Origin: a virus
Length of the DNA stretch: 36,794 nucleotides
Virus genome (UHGV): UHGV-0205693
Direction: 5' to 3' (one strand)
Part shown: in pieces, positions 3,062 through 13,272 of the stretch
How the letters are laid out: every line of letters starts with the position of its first letter
Numbering within the stretch: position 1 is the first letter of the stretch
Notes under the pieces: model-generated
What the model saw: the letters and a program-made list of their open reading frames with translations, nothing else
The model's database searches: none
Told to the model about the DNA's origin: nothing
Made by a program: the position numbers and the translations under genes

Positions 3062-4078
3062 TCATTTTTTCTGACCGCCGACCACCGGCACGATTTTAGT
3101 TTTCCTGTCGTAAATTGCCGTCTGTCTCGAATTTTTATGACCTGAAATCGCCTGTTTCTCCTCGAGGCTTCCTTCCAAATCAGAAACACCTTTCGCCTTC
3201 AGATCATGGAAAGTGAAATCTATCTGCAGGTGCGGGTTCTTTTCCTGCGCTGCGATTTTGGCGTCGCGCCAGCGTGAATTAAAACCGTCGCGGGTGTATT
3301 TGCTGCCGCTGGTCTGGTGAATGACAAACAGGCTACGGATACCCGGCTTTAACGGCAGGGAGCGGGCGAGGGCGACAGCGGCGCGCAGGCGTGGCGACCA
3401 TGCTTTGATTTGCTTCACGCCTGTTTTCCCCTGGCGTATAAAGATCCCGGTTTCCCGTATCTGGTCTTCAGTCAAAGCCAGCACATCGCTTTGTCTGGCC
3501 AGACACAAATAAGCGATTTCCATGGTGGCGCGAACCACGTCCGGAGCAACGTCGTAAACCGCTTTGTATTCTTCGTCGGTGATGTAACGCTCCCTGGCCG
3601 TCTCTTTGAACTTCTTAACGCCCTGACAGGGATTATGCTGAACGTAACCGCGCTCATAACCCCAACGGAATACCCGCGAAAGAAAACTCTTTTCCCGGTT
3701 AGCCTGCGTTTTACTGGCCATGCCACGCTGATCCATATAGCGCCGGATGTGTTCTGGTTTAATTTTATCCGGGTTAACCTTCCCGAATACCGGCAACACT
3801 TTGCCTGCGTATTTCGTGTAGTCTTTTCGGGTTTCTGCCGCTAAATCCTGCCAGTCAGGGGAAGACATGAATTGATCGGCCAGAGCCTGAAACGTCTTGC
3901 GCTCGACTTCTTCTCCCATGGCTTTTTCATATGCCAGCCATACAGCTGATTGAGGCTCGGAGAGCGCACATAGCCTGATAGCCTTGTTATCTTTATTCCT
4001 GAATTCATACGCCGCCTTGCCGCGATACACGCGGGGCGGCATCCAGTTATCAGCGGGGTTCTTACGCTTTCCGGCCAT
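3062..4078 (-). CDS. int: tyrosine site-specific integrase
   Basis: 338 aa with a lambda-integrase-like organisation, a C-terminal catalytic region (HDLK...H...R...Y context), and adjacency to the tRNA-derived att core. Confidence 0.85.
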   Translation of the reverse strand: MAGKRKNPADNWMPPRVYRGKAAYEFRNKDNKAIRLCALSEPQSAVWLAYEKAMGEEVERKTFQALADQFMSSPDWQDLAAETRKDYTKYAGKVLPVFGKVNPDKIKPEHIRRYMDQRGMASKTQANREKSFLSRVFRWGYERGYVQHNPCQGVKKFKETARERYITDEEYKAVYDVAPDVVRATMEIAYLCLARQSDVLALTEDQIRETGIFIRQGKTGVKQIKAWSPRLRAAVALARSLPLKPGIRSLFVIHQTSGSKYTRDGFNSRWRDAKIAAQEKNPHLQIDFTFHDLKAKGVSDLEGSLEEKQAISGHKNSRQTAIYDRKTKIVPVVGGQKK

Positions 4079-4307
4079 TAAAGATAGCTCCGAAGTCTGG
4101 TTCTTCCTCCCGCACCGTTTCTTCCTGCTGGTTGCGGTATTTAATCGGGTTCAGGAAATGGCCCCACGTCGTTTTAGGATGGCCGTCTGCCCTTTCCATG
4201 AAAAAGACTCCGGCCCGGCGTAGCGCTTCACACTGCCGCGATTTAAGCGGTGTCCCCGTCAGTTCGATCATTTCCTCTCTGGTGATGATGTCGTGATCGT
4301 GTCTCAT
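4062..4307 (-). CDS. xis: excisionase-like / small DNA-binding protein
   Basis: 81 aa, overlaps the int start by 17 nt, and is preceded by the recurrent GAGGAAAGACCATG start context. The position is typical for xis. The sequence call itself is weak. Confidence 0.45.
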   Translation of the reverse strand: MRHDHDIITREEMIELTGTPLKSRQCEALRRAGVFFMERADGHPKTTWGHFLNPIKYRNQQEETVREEEPDFGAIFNGRKA

Positions 4308-4463
4308 GGTCTTTCCTCAGCATGCCGGCTATCGCGTTGTCTGCCGTATCGCAAGCGCGTTGGATATCGGACTGGGTCAGAGTCCTCTTTCTAACGCTGG
4401 CTGATAGCCTGCCAATTTTGATATCGAAATCTGAAAGTAAAAGTGTGCCTGGTTGCCAACGTA

Positions 4464-4500
4464 GCATTGTGATCTCCGGTTCATAGGTAGATCACAATGC
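4464..4500. repeat. perfect 12-bp inverted repeat GCATTGTGATCT / AGATCACAATGC with a 13-bp spacer
   Basis: Seen directly. Intergenic, between the small ORF ending at 4517 and xis. Confidence 0.8.
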
Positions 4501-4516
4501 TAACGACAGTTGCGGG

Positions 4517-4702
4517 TTATTTCTGATTAGGCTTAATCAGGTTTGGTTTATTCAGGAACGCGCCATTTTCGCGGGTGATTTTGGCACTGCGCGGAAAATG
4601 CATAGCCAGTTCGCAACGCGCGCAGGCTTCGATTATCCCGTTAGTACCGTCCGGAAAAACGACGTGAAGCGCGTCGCCTCGTTTCAGTGTGAGTTTCAGC
4701 AT
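4517..4702 (-). CDS. small hypothetical protein (about 61 aa, MLKLTLKRGD...), translationally coupled to the upstream gene
   Basis: ATG is 1 nt after the stop of the Gp157-like gene. CxxC motif present. Confidence 0.35.
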   Translation of the reverse strand: MLKLTLKRGDALHVVFPDGTNGIIEACARCELAMHFPRSAKITRENGAFLNKPNLIKPNQK

Positions 4703-4703
4703 A

Positions 4704-5270
4704 TCAGCGCACCTGCAGTGAACGTTCGCCAATCTCAAGGTGAGCGCCCGGCACTGGGTTTAACAGTTCTTCCGGTATCTCTCCGCCGTCAGCGCTAATC
4801 TGGGCCGCTGCTGCCTGTGCTGATTCAATCGCTTCCTTGATGGCTTTCTTGTCCGGAGTGACTAACGTCTGAACTGTCACTAATTCATCCGGCAGTAATT
4901 CATCATTATCGATCACGACGTTTATAGCTCCCTTACGTGCGGTAAAGGTATTTTTGGCGGTTTTAACCGTATCCTGACCGGCGGCCAGTAGGCACTGGAG
5001 AACATACTTCTTCAGGTTCGTGATCTTGCCTTCGAATGATTTTTTGCGGGCGGCGAGGCGTTTGGCCTCTTCATCACAGGTTTTTGCCAGACCTTCCAGA
5101 TTGCGAACATGCACAAACACCGCATCCAGTTTGTCGCCGAGTTGCAACTTAAGTCCTTCCATTGTGTCGGCAATCATTTCCGGAGACAGACCAGAGCCGT
5201 CTTCATTTTCCAGAAGCGCCTGGAGTTTTGACATATCGGCAGCGATAGCAATTGCAGTAGTAGAAGTCAT
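4704..5270 (-). CDS. Sipho_Gp157-family protein, commonly partnered with Sak/Erf recombinases
   Basis: 188 aa with an acidic N-terminus (LQALLENEDGS). The motifs AKRLAARKKSFEGKITNLKKYVL and VVIDNDELLPDELV match the Gp157 pattern. ATGA overlap with the upstream recombinase gene. Confidence 0.55.
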   Translation of the reverse strand: MTSTTAIAIAADMSKLQALLENEDGSGLSPEMIADTMEGLKLQLGDKLDAVFVHVRNLEGLAKTCDEEAKRLAARKKSFEGKITNLKKYVLQCLLAAGQDTVKTAKNTFTARKGAINVVIDNDELLPDELVTVQTLVTPDKKAIKEAIESAQAAAAQISADGGEIPEELLNPVPGAHLEIGERSLQVR

Positions 5271-7411
5271 TGTGCTTTCTCCTCGGCTTTATTCAGTTCT
5301 TTAATGCGGCCATCCTTAATGGTGATGAGTCGGCGGAGTCTGCCAGACAGATAGCGTTCATGCTGCGTATCGCCGTTGGCCTGGGCGGCTTTAATGTGTA
5401 CATCGATCTCACGTGCAATAGGGGAAAACACGCCATTGATTTCGTTCACCGTCACTCCATGTGCCAGGGTATTAGCAACGCGGCTTAATTTGTCGTCAAA
5501 CTCCTGGCGAAGCCGTGCTGCATCTTCGGCTGATTCGCTGGCGTTCTTCAGGTCAAACTCGGCCTTATTCTTCTGGCGGTACTCCAGATTGTCGTAAAGC
5601 CCCATAAAGATATCGCCGCTGAATCCTAGGCCGGATAACGCCTTTTTAGTGGCATCGGTAAGGGATTTTTTAGCGGCTTCCCCATCGCAGATCGGGCCAT
5701 ATTTGCTGCCGTAAATGTAGGGTGTGCAGCCGTAGGCGTATTCTTCTCCGCGAACATCGTTTACCAGATACCAAAGGCGAATTTTCATTACGTGATGTTT
5801 TTCAGTGAGGAAACCGCCATTACCATCTGAGATCAGTTCCCATGTATTGTTACCGTCACTTCCTTTTACAGTCCGTGTAATTGGCGCTCCATCGTCAAAG
5901 CGTTCTTCCAGTATATCGACGCCCCAGCCGCTGCCTTTCAGGCCGAACTCACGGGTAGCCAGCATCGTAAGATACGTGCCGTTGATTGAGGTGCCGCCGC
6001 CGTTTTGCGTGAATGCTTTGGTAAAGCGCTCATCGGTTTTGAAGACACGTTTCCACAGCGCCAGGTTGTCTTGTTCGGTGCCAGGATTACCGACTGATCG
6101 CACGACTTCTTCAGCGCTAGGCATGGTTTCTTTCTGGCTTATGTGCTCTACCAACTGCTCCACATCATCAGCAATTCTTTGCGCTTTGACGCTCAGTTTT
6201 TCCTCTGGCTCGCTGGCGATGTAATTGTCTGACGCATAAACGCCATAGCCCATATCGTTGAGCGTCTCACGCGCCTGTTTGGCCTGGGTATCGGTTACCA
6301 CCGGCTGTAGTGCTTCCGCTTTTTCGACCACGTTTGAGGCGGTATTTTGCGTTGCCTCTGGTTGTTTAACGGATCCTGTCTCGGTTTCTTCAAAGCGGCC
6401 GTTTGCCTCCAGCCATGAATCAATGTGGCGGCGTAGGCTGTCAGGGAAATGGTAGGTATCTTTTGCCGGGACGTTCTGCACTACGCCAAAAATACTGTCT
6501 CGGTCATATTTGAGGATGTGCTCCGTGGTGCGAAGCGCCATTGACCAACGTTTAAAATCTTCGCGCTCGTCTGCAATGATTTTCTCAGCATCGCGAAGGT
6601 TGCCTGATAATACTGGCGCGTCGGGAGAAATAGGGAGTAGGGCGACAGCGATCTCCTGATCCAGTGTTGCATAGGTATGTTTATAACCACGTTTGGGCGC
6701 GATTTTAACGTTGAAATCAGTGCTGGCGGTGCCGAGTGAGGAATTTTGGCCTGGTACCATTTCTTCACGTTTACCGGGATTCTCAAGCCAGCGTTTTACA
6801 AATTGAGAAATAGCCGCTTTGCCCGGAGTCTGGTTTTCAAAATGGGAGAAGATGCCCTGGATCAGATTGTTCAGACCTTCCACGTGCATATGTTTAACTG
6901 GCTCGTTGTTGTGCAGGGCGCAAAGCACATTGAAATTAAAACGGTCATCCTCTTCCATGGTTTCGTCGTGGTTATCCAGATCATCAAGATAATCTACAAC
7001 CTGCGAATAGAGCTGGCCGTTCATCTCTAATTTGCTGAAGAGTAATACAGCTGCAAAACGCTCCCTAGGGGATACCGTCATCAGATCGATAACTTCATCG
7101 CCTGTCGGCAGCTCGGTGACGTCACCATTCCGGATGTTAGCCACCCATTTTTCACCGTCAAAGGTATTTTCTCGGGCGAACTGCTCATCGAACTGGCCAA
7201 CGGTCGGCAGCGGCTGGCCCTCTTCGTGTTCCCACAGCTTAGGTTTGAAATAGTTATCACCATTTGCCGGGTAAGATTCCCAGAGTTTGCCGGTGATAAT
7301 GCTTTCGGCGACTTTCTTGTTTGGTGCTTCGACGGCGATCGCCAGCTGCACGGCGCCGCAGTCTTTGATTGCCGATTTTTTTGGCTCGAATAAGCCGTTG
7401 TAGATGGTCAT
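5267..7411 (-). CDS. 714-aa protein with a C-terminal Erf/Rad52-like single-strand annealing domain fused to an N-terminal region of about 450 aa of unknown function
   Basis: C-terminal segment TDATKKALSGLGFSGDIFMG and upstream YAYGCTPYIYGSKYG resemble the Erf/Sak/Rad52 SSAP signature (DA..RAL..LGfG). Sits in the early-left operon next to Gp157. Confidence 0.45.
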   Translation of the reverse strand: MTIYNGLFEPKKSAIKDCGAVQLAIAVEAPNKKVAESIITGKLWESYPANGDNYFKPKLWEHEEGQPLPTVGQFDEQFARENTFDGEKWVANIRNGDVTELPTGDEVIDLMTVSPRERFAAVLLFSKLEMNGQLYSQVVDYLDDLDNHDETMEEDDRFNFNVLCALHNNEPVKHMHVEGLNNLIQGIFSHFENQTPGKAAISQFVKRWLENPGKREEMVPGQNSSLGTASTDFNVKIAPKRGYKHTYATLDQEIAVALLPISPDAPVLSGNLRDAEKIIADEREDFKRWSMALRTTEHILKYDRDSIFGVVQNVPAKDTYHFPDSLRRHIDSWLEANGRFEETETGSVKQPEATQNTASNVVEKAEALQPVVTDTQAKQARETLNDMGYGVYASDNYIASEPEEKLSVKAQRIADDVEQLVEHISQKETMPSAEEVVRSVGNPGTEQDNLALWKRVFKTDERFTKAFTQNGGGTSINGTYLTMLATREFGLKGSGWGVDILEERFDDGAPITRTVKGSDGNNTWELISDGNGGFLTEKHHVMKIRLWYLVNDVRGEEYAYGCTPYIYGSKYGPICDGEAAKKSLTDATKKALSGLGFSGDIFMGLYDNLEYRQKNKAEFDLKNASESAEDAARLRQEFDDKLSRVANTLAHGVTVNEINGVFSPIAREIDVHIKAAQANGDTQHERYLSGRLRRLITIKDGRIKELNKAEEKAQ

Positions 7412-7443
7412 TGGTCTTTCCTCGTTTGTAACTAATTCGCTGG

Positions 7444-7728
7444 TTAGGCGTCTTGTTTAATTTCAGGGAGCAGTCCAGCGATCACGCGTTCTGCCGTTTT
7501 TTTTGCTTCTTCCAACTGCTCTAGTTCGCGTTCGAGATGAACCTTTTGGCTTTCTGCCAGTTCTTTAATTTCTGATGAATCGACTTTGAGATAGCTCTCG
7601 CCGTTTCTACCTTCCGCTAAAATCCCGGAGGAGCGGCATTCGTTACTGCAAATATTGATAATTCTGTTTGCGCGATCTAAGCGGTCTTTAATTTCGCGAA
7701 TTCTTTCAAGCAATTTTCTAATATCCAT
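7444..7728 (-). CDS. hypothetical coiled-coil protein (94 aa)
   Basis: ORF preceded by the GAGGAAAGACCATG start cassette. Confidence 0.5.
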   Translation of the reverse strand: MDIRKLLERIREIKDRLDRANRIINICSNECRSSGILAEGRNGESYLKVDSSEIKELAESQKVHLERELEQLEEAKKTAERVIAGLLPEIKQDA

Positions 7729-7772
7729 GGTCTTTCCTCTTGGTTACAGGCGCAGGTCACGCGCCCAGTTAA

Positions 7773-8183
7773 TTAAAACGGTACGTCGCTTTCTTCAATC
7801 GGAGAGTGGTCGATGCACAGCAGCTGCTGGATCTGGTCTTCAATAACGCTTAACTGTTTGTTGGCATCAGCAGATATTTGCTCTTTCTTCGCGCGAAGGG
7901 CATTAACCTGCATCCCGATAATATCGATAGGCTCTAAAGCAGGAATGGCAACCTCTACCGTTTTAGTTGTAACGAGAACATACAGATCAGGGTACTGCTG
8001 TGACATGTCACAGGTGAATGAGTGATAAGACGTTGGTAGGTATGGATTGGTTGTTGCCATAACGTAGATAGTTACGGGGATGGTAAGCGCTTCCATAGCG
8101 ACTCCTTGGTGATGTATACTCAGAGCCGATCGGCGACTCTGTCGTTGGTCTTTCCTCGCTACAGGGTTGGTCCCCTGTAGCAT
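7773..8183 (-). CDS. first gene of the pL operon. Candidate N-like antiterminator if translated from 8183 (N-terminal arginine-rich segment PVARKDQRQSRRSAL). An alternative start at 8098 has a strong AAGGAG ribosome-binding site and gives 108 aa.
   Basis: The position immediately downstream of the pL leader, boxB-like hairpins and a tL1-like terminator fits an N-like role. The arginine-rich motif is present only in the long form. Confidence 0.35.
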   Translation of the reverse strand: MLQGTNPVARKDQRQSRRSALSIHHQGVAMEALTIPVTIYVMATTNPYLPTSYHSFTCDMSQQYPDLYVLVTTKTVEVAIPALEPIDIIGMQVNALRAKKEQISADANKQLSVIEDQIQQLLCIDHSPIEESDVPF

Positions 8184-8300
8184 TCCTGGCGGATTGGTCT
8201 CCGCTGGGGTAAATCAGCCCACTCCGGTGGGCTTTTTTACGCCTGAATGTTGCCGGTCTTTCCCGGCTGTCAGGGTGGTCAGTCCCGTTGGTCTTTCCTC
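8145..8300 (-). repeat. two copies of a start-codon-less CGAGGAAAGACCAA unit (decoy RBS) in the pL leader, identical to the functional RBS unit at 7414-7427
   Basis: TTGGTCTTTCCTCG occurs on the plus strand at 8145-8158 and 8287-8300 with no ATG following on the minus strand. Confidence 0.7.
8226..8249 (+). terminator. rho-independent terminator on the plus strand (AGCCCAC-tccg-GTGGGCT followed by T6) inside the minus-strand operon
   Basis: Perfect 7-bp stem and a T6 run, seen directly. Confidence 0.6.
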
Positions 8301-8431
8301 GTTACCGTGTGAAAAAAATGCCCGGGGCGCCCGGGCCAAGACTACACACAGCAATTCGTATTCGTTGCGGTCTTTCCCGCATGTCATCGTACTGTCGGCG
8401 ACCCGAAGAATTATTGCCCGTCTTTCCGGAC
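8252..8431 (-). ncRNA. pL leader region with three boxB-like hairpins: GCCGG-GAAAGA-CCGGC (8252-8267), GCGG-GAAAGA-CCGC (8367-8380), GUCCG-GAAAGA-CGGGC (8416-8431)
   Basis: 5-bp stems with identical purine-rich GAAAGA loops. The third pairs better as minus-strand RNA (a G-U wobble on that strand, a C-A mismatch on the other). They lie between pL and the first early gene, as nutL does. Confidence 0.45.
8311..8336 (-). terminator. tL1-like intrinsic terminator in the pL leader (GCCCGGG-cgc-CCCGGGC followed by U7 on the minus strand)
   Basis: Seen directly. Located upstream of the first early-left gene. Confidence 0.6.
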
Positions 8432-8487
8432 TGTCAGAACTGTTTCTGAACAACTGCCGCGTGGTTAGTGCCTCGTTGATGGGAGGA

Positions 8488-8516
8488 ATATTAATAATGA
8501 TAATATTATCGGTCAA
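8488..8516 (-). promoter_or_regulatory. pL candidate (TTGACC, 17 nt, TAATAT on the minus strand) within an AT-rich OL region containing AATATTA-type palindromes (ATAATATTAT; AAAATATT..AATATTTT)
   Basis: Hexamers and spacing were read from the reverse complement. The same AATATTA palindrome family appears in OR. Confidence 0.5.
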
Positions 8517-8569
8517 CATTAAAATATTAATTACGACAATATTTTTTGTATGGTGTTGATAATTTAGAT

Positions 8570-8596
8570 AAAAAAAATCCCAGCGGGAGGCTGGGA
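8570..8596 (-). terminator. cI transcript terminator (TCCCAGC-ctccc-GCTGGGA followed by U8 on the minus strand)
   Basis: Perfect 7-bp stem followed by 8 U, 25 nt downstream of the repressor stop. Confidence 0.7.
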
Positions 8597-8620
8597 TCTT
8601 GGTTTGGATTGGGAAGTGAT

Positions 8621-9076
8621 TTATTGCTTACGTGTTGCCAATAGCTCTCTAAATAAGCGGTCGAAACCTTCTACTTTCTCTTTTAAATCAGATAAATGGC
8701 GTTCTTTTTCGCTCTGCGGAAGCCTCTCATACAAATCTATAAGTTCTGCATGTTCTGGGTTAAGAAGTTTCCAGCCTGGTCCTGATCTATCTTCGAGATA
8801 CTCCCCTGATTTCCTAACGTAATTCATCATCTCGGCTAGGTCGGGTCTGATCTCTTCTGGTTTTACCCCAAGTAGAGAGGCGAATTTTAATGTGGCATCT
8901 GTGTTTAGCGGAGTTGTGCCATTTAAGTAATGGCTTACTGACGCCTGTGTGCTAAAGCCAAGCACCTCCGCTGCCTTCTCCTGAGTCAGACGTAAAGTTA
9001 CTTTTTTCTCGTTCCAGATATCACGAAGGCGTTTGGCAGCTTCGCGCTCTACGGCGTCAATGGTTTTCTTTCTCAT
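8621..9076 (-). CDS. cI: cI-like HTH (XRE-family) repressor, 151 aa, lacking a recognisable S24 autopeptidase domain
   Basis: N-terminal HTH (LTQEKAAEVLGFSTQASVSHYLNG). Divergent from cro across the operator region. The C-terminus is too short for S24 and has no Ser/Lys dyad context. Confidence 0.75.
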   Translation of the reverse strand: MRKKTIDAVEREAAKRLRDIWNEKKVTLRLTQEKAAEVLGFSTQASVSHYLNGTTPLNTDATLKFASLLGVKPEEIRPDLAEMMNYVRKSGEYLEDRSGPGWKLLNPEHAELIDLYERLPQSEKERHLSDLKEKVEGFDRLFRELLATRKQ

Positions 9077-9119
9077 GGAGGCATGTTATTCGCAAAATTA
9101 ATTAAACTCTAAGGTCATT

Positions 9120-9170
9120 GCTATTGACGAAAAATATTAACGTTATTAATATTAATTCTGTCCAATCACA
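9120..9170 (+). promoter_or_regulatory. OR/pR: TTGACG (9125-9130), 17 nt, TAATAT (9148-9153), overlapping the 12-bp palindrome ATTAATATTAAT (operator)
   Basis: Seen directly, 30 nt upstream of cro. Confidence 0.6.
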
Positions 9171-9182
9171 GAGGCCCTAACG

Positions 9183-9416
9183 ATGAAACTGAAAGACTAT
9201 TTAAAAACATCTGGTGTTCGGCAGCATGAATTCGCCGCACTGGTTGGGAAAACTCAAGGCTACGTAAGCCGAATTGCTGCGGGAGAATGTTTCCTGTCCG
9301 CCGCGACAGCGTTGGAATGGTCTGCTGCTACTAAGTATCAGGTTACGCCGCACGATCTTCTCCCAAATATTTATCGAAAACCAACTGACGGACTGCCGGA
9401 ACAGAATGCAGCTTAA
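9183..9416 (+). CDS. cro: Cro-like HTH regulator
   Basis: 77 aa with the HTH QHEFAALVGKTQGYVSRIAAG. First gene rightward of OR. Confidence 0.75.
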   Translation: MKLKDYLKTSGVRQHEFAALVGKTQGYVSRIAAGECFLSAATALEWSAATKYQVTPHDLLPNIYRKPTDGLPEQNAA

Positions 9417-9478
9417 CAATCTGCGTTATCGAAATCTGATTACGCTTAATCAATTTTCAGCGACAGGAGACGCTCGAA

Positions 9479-9925
9479 GTGGAATACCTCGAAGAACTTA
9501 AACGAGAGATCTTTAACTGGGCAGCGGAAAGCGGGCAGGAGCTGGTTGCTATCGAGATAAGCCGCATGTGGTTTCGTCTTGGTGGTAATACTGGTTTGCT
9601 GAAGCTGCACCAGATCGAAGATGCAGATGGAAACGCCGACTGGCGGGCAATCAACAACAACCGCCAACAAATTTTTCGTTGGTTGCGAGGCGAGACCAGA
9701 GCCGCGAGAGCCAAAACTCTGGCGCTGGTCAAAGCGATGGAAGCGGCGCTGCCGGCAGAACGTTACGCGCGCTTGGGTATGTCCACCCAGTATTTAATTT
9801 GTGTGGCTATTCGTGAGTTTGCCGCAGCGATTATCGCGTTGTTACTCGACGCCAGAGACGGGCCGCAACAAGTCGCAAGAGCATTGCAAGCTATGCGTGA
9901 AACACAGCGCCTGACCAGCGTTTAA
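9479..9925 (+). CDS. phage CII-like regulatory protein (CP76-type), GTG start
   Basis: 148 aa in the position after cro. Resembles the 'phage regulatory protein CII (CP76)' family from memory. AGGAGA RBS 8 nt upstream of the GTG. Confidence 0.45.
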   Translation: MEYLEELKREIFNWAAESGQELVAIEISRMWFRLGGNTGLLKLHQIEDADGNADWRAINNNRQQIFRWLRGETRAARAKTLALVKAMEAALPAERYARLGMSTQYLICVAIREFAAAIIALLLDARDGPQQVARALQAMRETQRLTSV

Positions 9926-9945
9926 CCTGTACCGAGGAAAGACCA

Positions 9946-10167
9946 ATGAGAACACAAGACCGCATCACCTGGCGGAATGGGTTTCGCCGGAACGGGGTAC
10001 AAGTCCCGATGGAAGATATCGAATCGATTTTCGAAGAGCGTCGCGCTACTGCGCTGACAATCTGGGAACGCTACGAACTGCGCAAGGCAGACCTGCAGGA
10101 AGCGGGACTCACCCAGAAAGAATACGAAATCGCCTGCCGTCAGCTGGCTGACTCGCTGGGGATCTGA
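9946..10167 (+). CDS. hypothetical protein (73 aa) preceded by the conserved boundary cassette
   Basis: ORF with the ACCGAGGAAAGACCAATGA start context. Confidence 0.5.
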   Translation: MRTQDRITWRNGFRRNGVQVPMEDIESIFEERRATALTIWERYELRKADLQEAGLTQKEYEIACRQLADSLGI

Positions 10168-10169
10168 GT

Positions 10170-11162
10170 ATGAATATTTTGCCATTACTCGACAGGCCGA
10201 TCGCCTTCCAGCGCAGTTTTATTCGTCTGGATATTGGTGTGACGGCTGCGCTGTTTCTGTCACAAATGACCTACTGGACTAACCGATCCGACGATGACGG
10301 ATGGGTGTATAAAACCCAGGAAGAATGGGAGGAAGAAACCGGCCTTTCCCGCTATGAGCAGGAGGGGGCGCGTAAGAAACTCCGCTCAATTGGTGTACTG
10401 CTGGAAAAAAGAAAAGGCGTTCCTGCGCGACTTTTCTACAAAGTAGATAATAACGTTTTATATCAGGTGCTTGTAGCTGCAAACAAGAATGCGGAAAAAC
10501 CACATACTGGAATGCGTAAAACCACCAAACAAGTCAGGGGAAAACCAGCAAACTTTCTTACAGAGAATACTACAGAGAATATAGATCCCCCTAACCCCCA
10601 GGAGGGGGAAGGCGTTGAGTTAATTCTTTCTGATGCACAAAAAGCGCTGGAATTTTACAACGAGCAAACCGGTACCCGCTGCCGTGACCTTAAACCGTTT
10701 GTGCTGATGCTGACGCCGACCACCACCCGGGCAGGGTACACGCTGGACGAATTGCAGTTAGTTATCCGCTGGGTTCTGGCCACATGGCGCCGCCGTGGCG
10801 ATAGCCTGCCGAAGCCTGCGAACATCTGCCGGGTAAACCGCTTTGATGGTTATCTCGCTGACGCTGAAGCATGGGCGGTGACCGAAACCGATATTGATCC
10901 GGAAGCCGTTATGAACGGCTACAACGAAATTTTTGCTGACGTTCTGCCAACTGCTGAACTGGACACCGACCGCCGCCGGATGATCACCCGTCTTGCCGCT
11001 CACATGAAAAACAAAACCACGGGCGCATTTCTGGGTTATTTCGAAAAATTCCGCGCTGACGCCTCCGATTTTTACTTTGGTGAAAATGGCGGATGGCGCG
11101 CCAGCTTTGACTATCTGATGAAACCAGAGACATTGCGTAAGACCAGGGAGGGCGCTTTATGA
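10170..11162 (+). CDS. replication initiation / replisome organiser protein (lambda O-like role) with an N-terminal winged-helix domain and a conserved phage C-terminal domain. Carries internal iteron-like repeats.
   Basis: N-terminus FLSQMTYWTNRSDDDGWVYKTQEEWEEETGLS is typical of phage replication initiators. A low-complexity linker coincides with the DNA repeats. Immediately upstream of the DnaB helicase with an ATGA overlap. Confidence 0.6.
   Translation: MNILPLLDRPIAFQRSFIRLDIGVTAALFLSQMTYWTNRSDDDGWVYKTQEEWEEETGLSRYEQEGARKKLRSIGVLLEKRKGVPARLFYKVDNNVLYQVLVAANKNAEKPHTGMRKTTKQVRGKPANFLTENTTENIDPPNPQEGEGVELILSDAQKALEFYNEQTGTRCRDLKPFVLMLTPTTTRAGYTLDELQLVIRWVLATWRRRGDSLPKPANICRVNRFDGYLADAEAWAVTETDIDPEAVMNGYNEIFADVLPTAELDTDRRRMITRLAAHMKNKTTGAFLGYFEKFRADASDFYFGENGGWRASFDYLMKPETLRKTREGAL
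10478..10585 (+). repeat. candidate replication origin: three AAAACCA(C/G)CAAAC-type direct repeats (about 10494, 10517, 10539), then tandem ACAGAGAATA x2 in an AT-rich segment
   Basis: Seen directly, inside the O-like gene linker, analogous to lambda ori inside O. Confidence 0.45.
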
Positions 11163-12565
11163 TGCAGATGATGTATTCCACTCAGGAACTGGAATGTCTA
11201 GTTCTTGGCTGCCTGATGAACGGCGGCGCCACGCCGGACGCCTTTGATGTGATTGCCAGCACGCCGAGTGAGGCTTTCAGCGTCGCATACTACAGGCAGA
11301 TTTACGGTGTGATCAAAGCGCAGGCCTTGAGCGGCGGCTTAATTGACATGATGTACATTAGCGAGGCCATCGGCGGACAGGGGACGCTGGCCAATCTCGC
11401 CGATATATGCAAATTCCCGACATCGATCGTCAACCTCAAAGGTTACGCCAAAAAAATGGTAAAGGCCTGGCGAAGCCGAACCATAGCGCAATTACTTCAG
11501 GATGGTGCGGATGGTATTCGTGATGCAATAAACCAGGAGCAGCGCGATCAGGTTGTCGAAACTGCCGTGGCGCAGCTGCTGGACATGACCGGCGACACTG
11601 GCGACGTGCAGCCAGTACACATGAGTGAATTACTGCCAGTGTACATGGAAACCATGCAGAAGCGCATGGACGGTGAAGAGGGTACCCGCAACCTGAAAAC
11701 CGGGATCGAGGAACTGGACGATGCAACCGGTGGAATCAACCTGCAGGATTTGATTGTCGTCGCCGGGCGTCCGGGAATGGGAAAAACAGAATTTGCTCTG
11801 AAGATTGTCGATGGTGTTACCGCTGCCGGCGGTGGTGCGTTGATATTCAGCATGGAAATGGCCGCTGCGCAAATCGTAGAACGCTCTCTGGCGGGTTCTG
11901 GCAACATGTCGGTGTCACGCCTGCGTAATCCCCTCGATATGCAGGACGAGGACTGGGCGCGCTTTACAGCGGCCATGGAGACCATGAACGGGCGAGATAT
12001 CTGGATCGTTGATGCTACCGATCTGACGATTGAGCAAATCCGCGCCGTTGCCGAAACGCATAAGCGCCGGTATCCGCATCTGGCGATGATCGTTGTCGAT
12101 TACCTTGGCCTGATTAAAAAACCGAAGGCAGAGCGTAACGACCTCGCGATCGCCCACATATCCCGAAACTTAAAAACTATGGCTATGCGCCTGCATACGC
12201 CGACGTTCGCGCTTAGCCAGCTTTCCCGCGCTGTGGATTCCCGCCCGGCGCTCCAGCGCCGCCCGGTCATGTCAGACCTGCGCGATTCCGGTTCTATTGA
12301 GCAGGACGCCGACAGCATCATGTTTCTGTATCGCGATGAGGTTTACAACCCGGAAAGCCCGGCGGCTGGCGTCGCTGAAATTATCCTGGGTAAAAGCCGC
12401 TTCAGCGCTGCAGGCGCAATTATTTATCAGGAATTTAAAAACGGACACTTTCTGTCAATGGATCAGCATGTTGGCAAAGAGAAAACACGTATCCAACTGG
12501 AGGCCGCTAAACCACGAAAACCAAGCCGTAAATACTCCGAGAAGTACAACACCGATTCATTTTAA
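11159..12565 (+). CDS. replicative DNA helicase, DnaB family
   Basis: 468 aa with Walker A GRPGMGKTEF, the DnaB-type N-terminal domain and a C-terminal RecA-like fold with motifs (IVVDYLGL, SQLSRAVD). Confidence 0.85.
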   Translation: MMQMMYSTQELECLVLGCLMNGGATPDAFDVIASTPSEAFSVAYYRQIYGVIKAQALSGGLIDMMYISEAIGGQGTLANLADICKFPTSIVNLKGYAKKMVKAWRSRTIAQLLQDGADGIRDAINQEQRDQVVETAVAQLLDMTGDTGDVQPVHMSELLPVYMETMQKRMDGEEGTRNLKTGIEELDDATGGINLQDLIVVAGRPGMGKTEFALKIVDGVTAAGGGALIFSMEMAAAQIVERSLAGSGNMSVSRLRNPLDMQDEDWARFTAAMETMNGRDIWIVDATDLTIEQIRAVAETHKRRYPHLAMIVVDYLGLIKKPKAERNDLAIAHISRNLKTMAMRLHTPTFALSQLSRAVDSRPALQRRPVMSDLRDSGSIEQDADSIMFLYRDEVYNPESPAAGVAEIILGKSRFSAAGAIIYQEFKNGHFLSMDQHVGKEKTRIQLEAAKPRKPSRKYSEKYNTDSF

Positions 12566-12603
12566 CCGCGCCTGACCAGCGCGATTTAACCGAGGAAAGA
12601 CCA

Positions 12604-13272
12604 ATGACCACGAATTTAAATTACCCAAAACCAGTAAAACCGGACGATGGCTGCAACTGGCTACCCGTTATTCTCTGGCGCATGAACGCCGGCGCGCGCG
12701 CCCGTAGCCGTTCCGTGTTCGTTGCGGCGCCACGCCCGGAACCGGTACCCGGCATCACACCGCAAAAACCGATTAAGCGTGAAATTATCGCCCCTACGGT
12801 TTCCGGCCGCAGGCGCAAAACGCATATCGGCACTGTGATTTATTCCAAAGGAGAAAAGAGCGTACGTCTTAGTGAAGGCGTCACGGTCTGGTCTGCTGGC
12901 CCGAATGAGCATTTCGATAAAAAAACGGGCCGGCGCGTCGGCAGTATTGGCCGTCACCGTCTGGTGCTGGAGAGTATCCGCCCATTGCGGGCCAGCGACG
13001 AACAGCAGGACGCCGGGAGCATCACCGCGCAGCAGCTGGTATCGGTGATGAAAAGCAAAACGCTATCTTACCAGGGCATTCTGGCATTAATCCAGAAGCA
13101 CTATCCAGATTGTCAGGTGACGATTAAAGAACTTCACGATCGCGTGTTCGGCATGTTCATGTCGAATTACGTGGGTATCACCCGTCACGACGATATGCCG
13201 GTGGTTCACTTCACGCTTAACAGCGTCGATCCCCGTTATTACATCGAGTCAGCGAAGAACAAGAGGGCATAA
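12604..13272 (+). CDS. hypothetical nin-region protein (222 aa)
   Basis: ORF with the boundary cassette start context. Confidence 0.5.
   Translation: MTTNLNYPKPVKPDDGCNWLPVILWRMNAGARARSRSVFVAAPRPEPVPGITPQKPIKREIIAPTVSGRRRKTHIGTVIYSKGEKSVRLSEGVTVWSAGPNEHFDKKTGRRVGSIGRHRLVLESIRPLRASDEQQDAGSITAQQLVSVMKSKTLSYQGILALIQKHYPDCQVTIKELHDRVFGMFMSNYVGITRHDDMPVVHFTLNSVDPRYYIESAKNKRA

Follow-up and report, generated by a model that had tools for sequence, protein, structure and literature searches.

The UHGV virus genome UHGV-0205693 was analysed as one stretch of 36,794 nucleotides (nt), hereafter the window, which is a lambdoid prophage carrying a short repeated cassette at the start of several of its early genes. 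A fixed tag of 12–16 bases lies at the ribosome-binding site (RBS) and heads five early gene blocks, mostly with a small hairpin upstream; the cassette as a whole is made up of a hairpin, whose loop is (N)UGACCA, a spacer of 9–17 nt and then GAGGAAAGACCA(A)UG. The genes and promoter sites of the early region are the following.

3062–4078, minus strand: int
4062–4307, minus strand: xis-like gene (DUF4224)
5267–7411, minus strand: 714-amino-acid (aa) exonuclease gene
7444–7728, minus strand: 94-aa gene
7773–8096, minus strand: 107-aa gene, the first leftward gene
8516–8487, minus strand: pL promoter-like site (TTGACC, 17 nt, TAATAT)
8621–9076, minus strand: cI-like gene
9124–9152, plus strand: pR
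9183–9416, plus strand: cro
9479–9925, plus strand: YdaT/cII-like gene
9946–10167, plus strand: 73-aa gene
10170–11162, plus strand: RepO
11159–12565, plus strand: DnaB
12604–13272, plus strand: 222-aa gene, after dnaB

Tightly spaced or overlapping blocks headed by tagged genes in the window are 73-aa/RepO/DnaB, exonuclease/Gp157/61-aa and xis/int. The cro, cII-like and 107-aa genes have other RBSs, without the tag. The first-pass annotation had quoted cassette sequences ahead of five genes, and all of them were present at those places:

4305–4318, minus strand: cassette of the xis-like gene, GAGGAAAGACC plus ATG, a short form with no clear upstream hairpin
7409–7451, minus strand: exonuclease cassette, hairpin CGC-CUAACCA-GCG, spacer and GAGGAAAGACCAAUG, heading the translationally coupled block exonuclease/Gp157/61-aa
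7726–7766, minus strand: cassette of the 94-aa gene, hairpin GGCGC-GUGACCU-GCGCC, spacer and GAGGAAAGACCAUG; left joint of an insertion/deletion (indel) of this gene
9906–9948, plus strand: cassette of the 73-aa gene, hairpin AGCGC-CUGACCA-GCGUU, spacer and GAGGAAAGACCAAUG, at the first cistron of 73-aa/RepO/DnaB
12559–12606, plus strand: cassette of the 222-aa gene, UUUUAACC, hairpin GCGC-CUGACCA-GCGC, GAUUUAACC and GAGGAAAGACCAAUG

The enrichment of these sequences was real. The core GGAAAGACC occurs in nine exact copies against 0.23 expected from shuffled sequences, and nine copies were reached in none of 100 shuffles. Seven exact copies of AGGAAAGACCA were counted (0.61 expected at up to one mismatch), together with six copies of the 16-mer GAGGAAAGACCAATGA, which includes the ATG, at up to three mismatches (0.25 expected). 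Exact copies of the hairpin GCGCCTGACCAGCG stand at 9907 and 12568, and copies with two mismatches at 7451 and 7764; at the 73-aa gene the cassette hairpin overlaps the stop of the cII-like gene and, as read on the sense strand, has a G·U pair within its stem. Each copy is in sense orientation within its own early transcript, minus to the left of pL and plus to the right of pR, and the copies are confined to 4305–12606, from int to the gene after dnaB, with none in the remaining 24 kb of the window. The xis junction is likewise tagged in relatives. A 74-aa open reading frame (ORF) at 4243–4467 on the minus strand, with a PHROG match to phrog_27062, shares 65 nt with the beginning of the xis-like gene, so that the xis cassette lies inside this ORF and one gene call or start site may be wrong.

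Five more copies, missed in the first-pass annotation, were found on the minus strand of the non-coding pL leader (8431–8142), at 8427, 8377, 8298, 8263 and 8155. Three of the five form the loops of small hairpins (G-GAAAGA-C), and a second recurring loop motif, GACCA(A), had also been overlooked. The leader contains the following elements.

8416–8431, minus strand: leader hairpin 1, GUCCG-GAAAGA-CGGGC, upstream of the terminator tL-a
8366–8381, minus strand: leader hairpin 2, UGCGG-GAAAGA-CCGCA, with GGAAAGAC in the loop, upstream of tL-a
8310–8414, minus strand: RprA-like leader segment, ending in the strong intrinsic terminator tL-a (stem 8336–8320, U run to about 8313); a proposed leader sRNA made from pL
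8253–8300, minus strand: leader module 2, downstream of tL-a, made of CGAGGAAAGACCAACG, hairpin GGG-ACUGACCA-CCC, UGACAG and hairpin CCGG-GAAAGA-CCGG
8142–8157, minus strand: non-genic copy CGAGGAAAGACCAACG, whose complement is the seed of the antisense small RNA (sRNA) described below

The last copy (8157–8142) directly follows two hairpins with GACCAA loops and a hairpin at 8216–8233 that terminates on both strands. The RprA-like segment matched Rfam RF00034 with 43 bits (E = 0.0025), which is below the gathering score of 70 and does not make it a member of that family; it has a GGAAA hairpin, AAUUGCUGUGUGUAGUCUU and a terminator, and is conserved in relatives. By its sequence, pL thus probably yields a terminated leader RNA of about 165 nt with an RprA-type 3' module.

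Close relatives turned up in an E. coli chromosome, at 92.6% identity, and among phages deposited as Stenotrophomonas phages, BUCT708/709. Two samples of relatives were used. In the first, viral contigs were scanned for a 15-mer, which gave about 45 loci with at least four copies, picked by the motif itself; the second comprised 63 loci picked, independently of the motif, through the conserved beginning of the pL transcript. GGAAAGACC was present in 63 of these 63 loci, at the same relative positions as in the window: in the leader, at the gene after the 107-aa gene and at xis, and on the other strand at the 73-aa gene and the gene after dnaB. In addition, a protein-based scan of species-representative genomes recovered the same layout in ten species genomes from five genera, namely Raoultella (2 species), Enterobacter, Citrobacter, Serratia (5 species) and Rosenbergiella. 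The recurrence in related phages that the first-pass annotation proposed to look for was thus found in more than 100 related prophages of Escherichia, Raoultella, Enterobacter, Citrobacter, Serratia and Rosenbergiella, always before the same five gene families. Across 389 gene-proximal sites the cassette precedes essentially these families only: the 73-aa family ('ITWRNG'), the 222-aa family ('DDGCDW..ARARSRS'), the exonuclease, the 94-aa family and xis. The adjacent 107-aa protein falls to 42% identity across these hosts, and the cassette core is invariant. This family specificity, the non-genic leader copies and a core that stays invariant beside a diverged neighbouring protein suggested that the cassette is selected for a function at the RNA level. 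Among the leader hairpins, hairpin 1 shows compensatory variants and a sense-strand U·G wobble in 63 loci, and hairpin 2 has compensatory variants with sense-strand G·U pairs. Module 2 occurs as a tandem duplicate in some relatives, and its GAAAGA hairpin gives mixed signals on the folding strand. As a separate point, BUCT708 (L002, OM816834) and OM816835 are about 88% identical to this region over 57% of a 2.9-kb query; the other relatives of BUCT708/709 that were found are Enterobacterales prophages, and the stated Stenotrophomonas host may deserve checking.

Opposite the pL leader, the plus strand carries a putative RNA gene with these parts.

8115–8120, plus strand: −10-like hexamer TATACT of the proposed antisense promoter (P_as)
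8127–8238 (about), plus strand: proposed antisense sRNA of about 110 nt, opposite the pL leader and just upstream of the first leftward gene
8128–8150, plus strand: 5' stem-loop
8145–8157, plus strand: seed UUGGUCUUUCCUC
8151–8157, plus strand: single-stranded linker UUUCCUC
8158–8181, plus strand: hairpin A, 9 bp, loop UUGGUC
8185–8208, plus strand: hairpin B, loop UUGGUC, in relatives (U)UUGGUC(N)
8216–8233, plus strand: strong terminator, with its U run to 8238

The order of elements is constant in relatives: TATA(C/A)T, the stem-loop, UUGGUCUUUCCUC, two hairpins with UUGGUC loops, GGGGUAA, a GC-rich hairpin and 4–7 U. In an alignment of 30 unique sequences (A1), the seed core and both loops are invariant and the stems vary. 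The fold of the window sRNA has −62 kcal/mol (z = −8.1), compared with −48.5 on the opposite strand, and the plus strand folds more stably in 28 of the 30 sequences. Helices A and B have 98.2% paired cells in A1, on which RNAalifold was also run, with double changes in 11 of 17 pairs; these values were reached in none of 500 shuffles, and slid controls were 43–51% paired. Furthermore, the folded strand was determined from the fact that a transition in a Watson–Crick pair leaves one strand with G·U and its partner with A·C, the two being expected equally under neutrality. Helices A and B contain 77 G·U and 2 A·C cells when read for the plus strand, from at least 11 independent variant types, and it is on account of this 77-to-2 preference that the plus-strand RNA is taken to be the folded molecule. 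The 5' stem-loop, which begins at +2 of the predicted transcript, forms in 16 of 16 unique variants with differing 5' arms and 2–5 G·U pairs each, pairs that cannot form on the other strand. As an internal control, the gene-cassette hairpins and leader hairpins 1 and 2 behaved in the reverse way, their G·U pairs falling on the sense strand, indicating that the assay is not biased to one DNA strand.

Upstream of the sRNA, TATA(C/A)T stands at −10, with varying flanks, in every one of the variants listed, which were about 50 of the 52 unique upstream variants, and several divergent lineages have TGnTATAAT. The terminator is stronger on the plus strand in all relatives. Moreover, when a covariance model (R1) built from A1 was run on 77 sources, 74 gave a single copy per phage, in every case adjoining the 107-aa gene and antisense to the pL leader; a search of HK022 with it gave no copy. 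At Rfam gathering scores no family, including C4 (P1 c4/P4 CI), was found in the window and four relatives, and at E values up to 5 over 7300–10000 only chance-level matches fell on the plus strand of the sRNA (rsmX, 22.6 bits, E = 0.21). Literature searches by topic found no description of the sRNA or the cassette, and searches by sequence strings returned only a coincidence with 23S rRNA 2056–2064 and unrelated primers. The sequence evidence suggests a conserved, previously undescribed gene for a structured antisense RNA. Within it, a Dam site (GATC, 8129–8132, plus strand) occupies +3 to +6 of the predicted transcript in most unique variants and pairs with an invariant GGUC in the 5' stem-loop.

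The sRNA segment UUGGUCUUUCCUC(G) is the complement of (C)GAGGAAAGACCAA, and G·U pairing extends the match over the AUG. The 20-nt seed region was scanned for duplexes against the whole window on both strands. The site in cis gave −38 kcal/mol against a background of −11.1 ± 3.5, and the best unrelated site reached −24.2. The six best matches in trans were the five gene cassettes and one leader copy: −32.0 kcal/mol for the exonuclease cassette, −31.8 for the 222-aa cassette, −30.8 for leader module 2, −30.0 for the 73-aa cassette, −27.0 for the xis cassette and −26.1 for the 94-aa cassette. In addition, the cassette hairpin has a loop, (N)UGACCA, whose sequence complements UGGUC(A) in the sRNA loops. 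This hairpin stands 5' of the RBS, which is where the antiparallel arrangement of the sRNA seed and hairpin A would place it. Ensemble predictions leave UUUCCUC and both UUGGUC loops unpaired. The first-pass annotation had offered an RNA-processing or translational-control element as its alternative reading; translational control fits best, a conserved antisense sRNA carrying the exact complement of the cassette. We know of no host sRNA complementary to the motif.

Two observations concern the same sequences. AUGACCA (Met-Thr) opens many tagged genes (window 7409–7411 and 12604–12610, and xis starts in relatives), and such starts repeat the hairpin-loop motif (A/C)UGACCA, so that some targets have three GACCA elements, as against three UUGGUC in the sRNA. 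The 9-mer GGAAAGACC (for example at 9936–9944) is identical to E. coli 23S rRNA 2056–2064, within ACGGAAAGACCCCGU, which is the A2058 macrolide/Erm site and the TLR13 ligand; the antisense seed is consequently complementary to this rRNA segment as well. The identity is probably a coincidence, the chance of finding a given 9-mer in rRNA being roughly 2%.

With moderate confidence, we propose from these comparisons that a phage-encoded antisense sRNA acts in trans to control translation, recognising the cassette as its tag, and that the leader copies are decoys. Transcription from P_as, action in trans, repression and the decoy role are all parts that we infer from sequence. The plus-strand RNA would be made from P_as, convergently with pL. 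Its linker UUUCCUC and the adjacent UUGGUC would pair with 12–16 nt over the Shine–Dalgarno (SD) sequence and start codon of tagged genes, and its UUGGUC loops would kiss the GACCA loop of the cassette hairpin. This pairing would block the ribosome at the first cistron, and the rest of each block would be repressed via translational coupling. Five blocks would be held in this way (73-aa/RepO/DnaB, 222-aa and the following genes, 94-aa, exonuclease/Gp157 and xis/int), and the immediate-early cro, cII-like and 107-aa genes, lacking the tag, would escape. Firing of pL would remove the sRNA through the convergent transcription itself, through the leader as its full complement and through the decoy copies, namely two GGAAAGAC loops (G-GAAAGA-C) in the terminated RprA-like leader RNA and module 2; titration of the sRNA would then release delayed-early translation. 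A side effect is that gene gain or loss can use the repeated tag as a short-homology joint.

Several points weigh against this proposal. The −35 of P_as is poor (3 of 6), and because of this weakness the site is absent from the list of a consensus promoter scan. The first UUGGUC of the seed is held in the predicted 5' stem-loop, so that the free part is reduced to the generic anti-SD sequence UUUCCUC. Because the sRNA is read from the strand opposite one cassette copy, its complementarity to the others is automatic and is in itself no proof of action in trans. Covariation between seed and targets within phages, assessed at 12 positions flanking the core, was not demonstrable (6.66 vs. 6.58 matches, p = 0.10), and as the core never varies the comparison has no power there. 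Moreover, the leader has two terminators ahead of the pL genes, and the model does not account for the passage of pL transcription past them. The sRNA might instead have a purely cis-antisense role on the pL leader.

The first-pass annotation had likened the cassette to the lambdoid 'boundary sequences' that Clark et al. (2001) reportedly placed at module junctions, and this part of its reading stood only in so far as the cassette has been used as a joint. The likeness consists in a short conserved sequence at gene junctions between divergent flanks. The 94-aa gene (7444–7728) is present in the window and in relative L031 and absent in BUCT708 and relative L019, where the cassette standing before it in the window leads straight into the exonuclease gene; in the alignment the 316-bp difference starts and ends inside repeated GAGGAAAGACCA, bounded exactly by its two copies. 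At the cassette, different downstream alleles also follow identical upstream flanks, and together these two observations indicate its use as a joint. The phage furthermore encodes an exonuclease and Gp157 recombination functions. Nevertheless, we consider it unlikely that the cassette is primarily a recombination linker whose conservation reflects spread by recombination and not RNA function. It is limited to five specific gene families and does not mark module junctions in general; the non-genic leader copies are conserved in position, some of them as hairpin loops with compensatory stems; its 9–12-nt core is invariant across genera, although the flanks diverge; and its complement is part of a structured RNA on which selection is strand-specific. 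Every copy is oriented with transcription, whereas neutral homology predicts neither polarity nor family specificity. Gene-family specificity, polarity, the non-genic copies and invariance thus suggested that recombinational use is secondary to an RNA function.

Two further explanations were weighed. An RNA-binding protein, such as an N-like antiterminator of the boxA/boxB type, a RegA-like repressor or host CsrA, might read the GACC loops and GGAAAGACC. Hairpins with constant loops (GAAAGA, UGACCA) do recur downstream of pL in a leader with two terminators; GGA in the loops and the SD is the CsrA pattern; and UUUUAAC directly 5' of GCGC-CUGACCA-GCGC resembles boxA followed by P22 boxB GCGCUGACAAAGCGC. 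However, by the G·U count given above, it is the opposite strand that forms the GACCAA-type hairpins closest to the first gene, and a protein reading the pL transcript is disfavoured because it would not select for folding of the other strand. CsrA does not explain the invariance of AAGACC, and the motif is missing between pR and the cII-like gene, the expected place of nutR. No N-like or other RNA-binding family was detected in ten early proteins (PHROGs, Pfam), nor in three of them by a PDB sequence search. We rate protein recognition as improbable. Very improbable, in our estimate, is the account in which the cassette is only a favoured strong RBS copied among genes, the leader copies are relics of deleted genes and the antisense structure acts purely in cis, for example on the 107-aa gene or on pL readthrough. 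GAGG followed by 8 nt and AUG is indeed a good RBS, some leader copies have an ATG in some relatives, and the sRNA fully overlaps the pL leader. Yet the spacer AAAGACCA is invariant in more than 100 phages of five genera, unlike ordinary RBS spacers; the leader copies are kept with or without ATG, three of them as hairpin loops; and the RBS of the 107-aa gene lies outside the sRNA.

The nearest described sequence phenomenon is that of the start-associated sequences (SAS) and extended SAS (ESAS) of Cluster K mycobacteriophages, an asymmetric sequence of about 13 nt with the SD inside it (consensus GGGATAGGAGCCC); it is found in a single orientation 3–7 nt upstream of the start codon in some of the non-structural genes, in 15–20 copies per genome (PMC3203893). 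An inverted repeat often stands upstream, the same gene families are tagged across subclusters, and each genome has one reversed non-genic copy; its authors left open a phage or host RNA or protein as the binder and found little support for hairpin formation (PMC3203893). Like SAS, the cassette is a fixed SD-containing motif that is conserved before its own constant set of gene families, has a single orientation and is accompanied by a reversed non-genic copy. The sequence and host phylum are unrelated, no antisense RNA was proposed there, and a structured complementary sRNA gene is present here. Membership in SAS was rejected on motif and host, and we regard it as an analogue only.

As to antisense RNAs, P4 CI RNA is grouped with the c4-type phage RNAs. 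Phage antisense RNAs also include c4 of P1/P7, acting on icd/ant, and sar of P22 (reviewed in PMC12197685). The proposed RNA is like these in being a phage small RNA with complementary sequences partly in loops that would pair around the RBS and block translation of lytic or anti-immunity functions, and in having repeated target sequences in the same transcript region. It differs in being convergent with pL, in its own predicted promoter and in its five dispersed blocks on both early operons with apparent decoys. AgvB and AsxR, anti-sRNAs of enterohaemorrhagic E. coli prophages encoded 3' of PR', antagonise GcvB and FnrS (PMC4104026); they are likewise phage RNAs that titrate an sRNA by mimicking its mRNA targets, as proposed for the pL-leader copies, but their targets are host sRNAs, and the Rfam AgvB model scores only 17.7 bits here, on the terminator.

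With lambda N/nut and HK022 put the window shares a structured RNA just downstream of pL in a terminator-containing leader; the motif here is nevertheless at RBSs, with many copies per operon. Lambda N/nut itself was rejected: the first leftward protein is phrog_2479 (function not known) and has no arginine-rich N-terminus, and none of the ten early proteins belongs to an N family. A boxA plus boxB arrangement (5-bp stem, GNRA-like pentaloop) was also rejected, the loops being of 6–7 nt, with many copies at RBSs and none between cro and the cII-like gene. In HK022, putL and putR are two-stem elements downstream of PL and PR (PMC9378689), and by inspection those in the HK022 record are not similar to the window. 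A CsrA/RsmA-titrating RNA (CsrB/RsmX, ANGGA loops) was set aside as well, since the loops here are GAAAGA and UGACCA and the rsmX match, at 22.6 against a gathering score of 56, is on the opposite strand.

The pL leader shows two further features. The first 40 nt or so of the pL transcript (8440–8480, minus strand, CAUCAACGACGCACUAACCACGCGGCAGUUGUUCAGAAAC) are almost invariant in all relatives despite differing operator/promoter regions and immunity types. As the leader has two terminators and no N-like gene was found, this start could be some kind of antitermination or processing element. Between leader hairpin 2 and tL-a, moreover, relatives L002 (about 6800–7150, minus strand), L024, L031, L108 and L109 carry non-coding inserts of 250–450 nt, one of them starting AACCGGCGTATGGCACATGCGTCGAAGCGGTCCGGGGG, with no Rfam match at gathering scores; other inserts at this spot, in L095, L122 and L190, include some that are small ORFs (morons).

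If the cassette is the tag of the antisense sRNA, one phage RNA of about 110 nt would define an intragenomic regulon through a tag in RBSs, so that a single post-transcriptional lock would control replication, recombination and excision. The classical one-target phage antisense RNAs (sar, OOP, c4) would thereby gain a dispersed, multi-target counterpart, and the catalogued "start-associated" phage repeats, which lack a mechanism, would receive a concrete and testable explanation. A functional RNA tag can, in addition, double as a short-homology joint in mosaic evolution. More speculatively, and as an extension that we regard as possible though doubtful, the delayed-early switch in these N-less enterobacterial lambdoid prophages might be a three-RNA circuit instead of protein antitermination, in which a constitutive antisense sRNA clamps the tagged RBSs, an RprA-like terminated leader with GGAAAGAC sponge loops and downstream decoy modules takes it up when pL fires, and tagged mRNAs are the third partner. 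The same logic could then account for the SAS motif of Cluster K mycobacteriophages, where one copy is likewise reversed and non-genic. For the prophages themselves, an antisense sRNA working as proposed would offer a handle for manipulating the induction of a family common in Klebsiella-, Enterobacter- and Serratia-type hosts.

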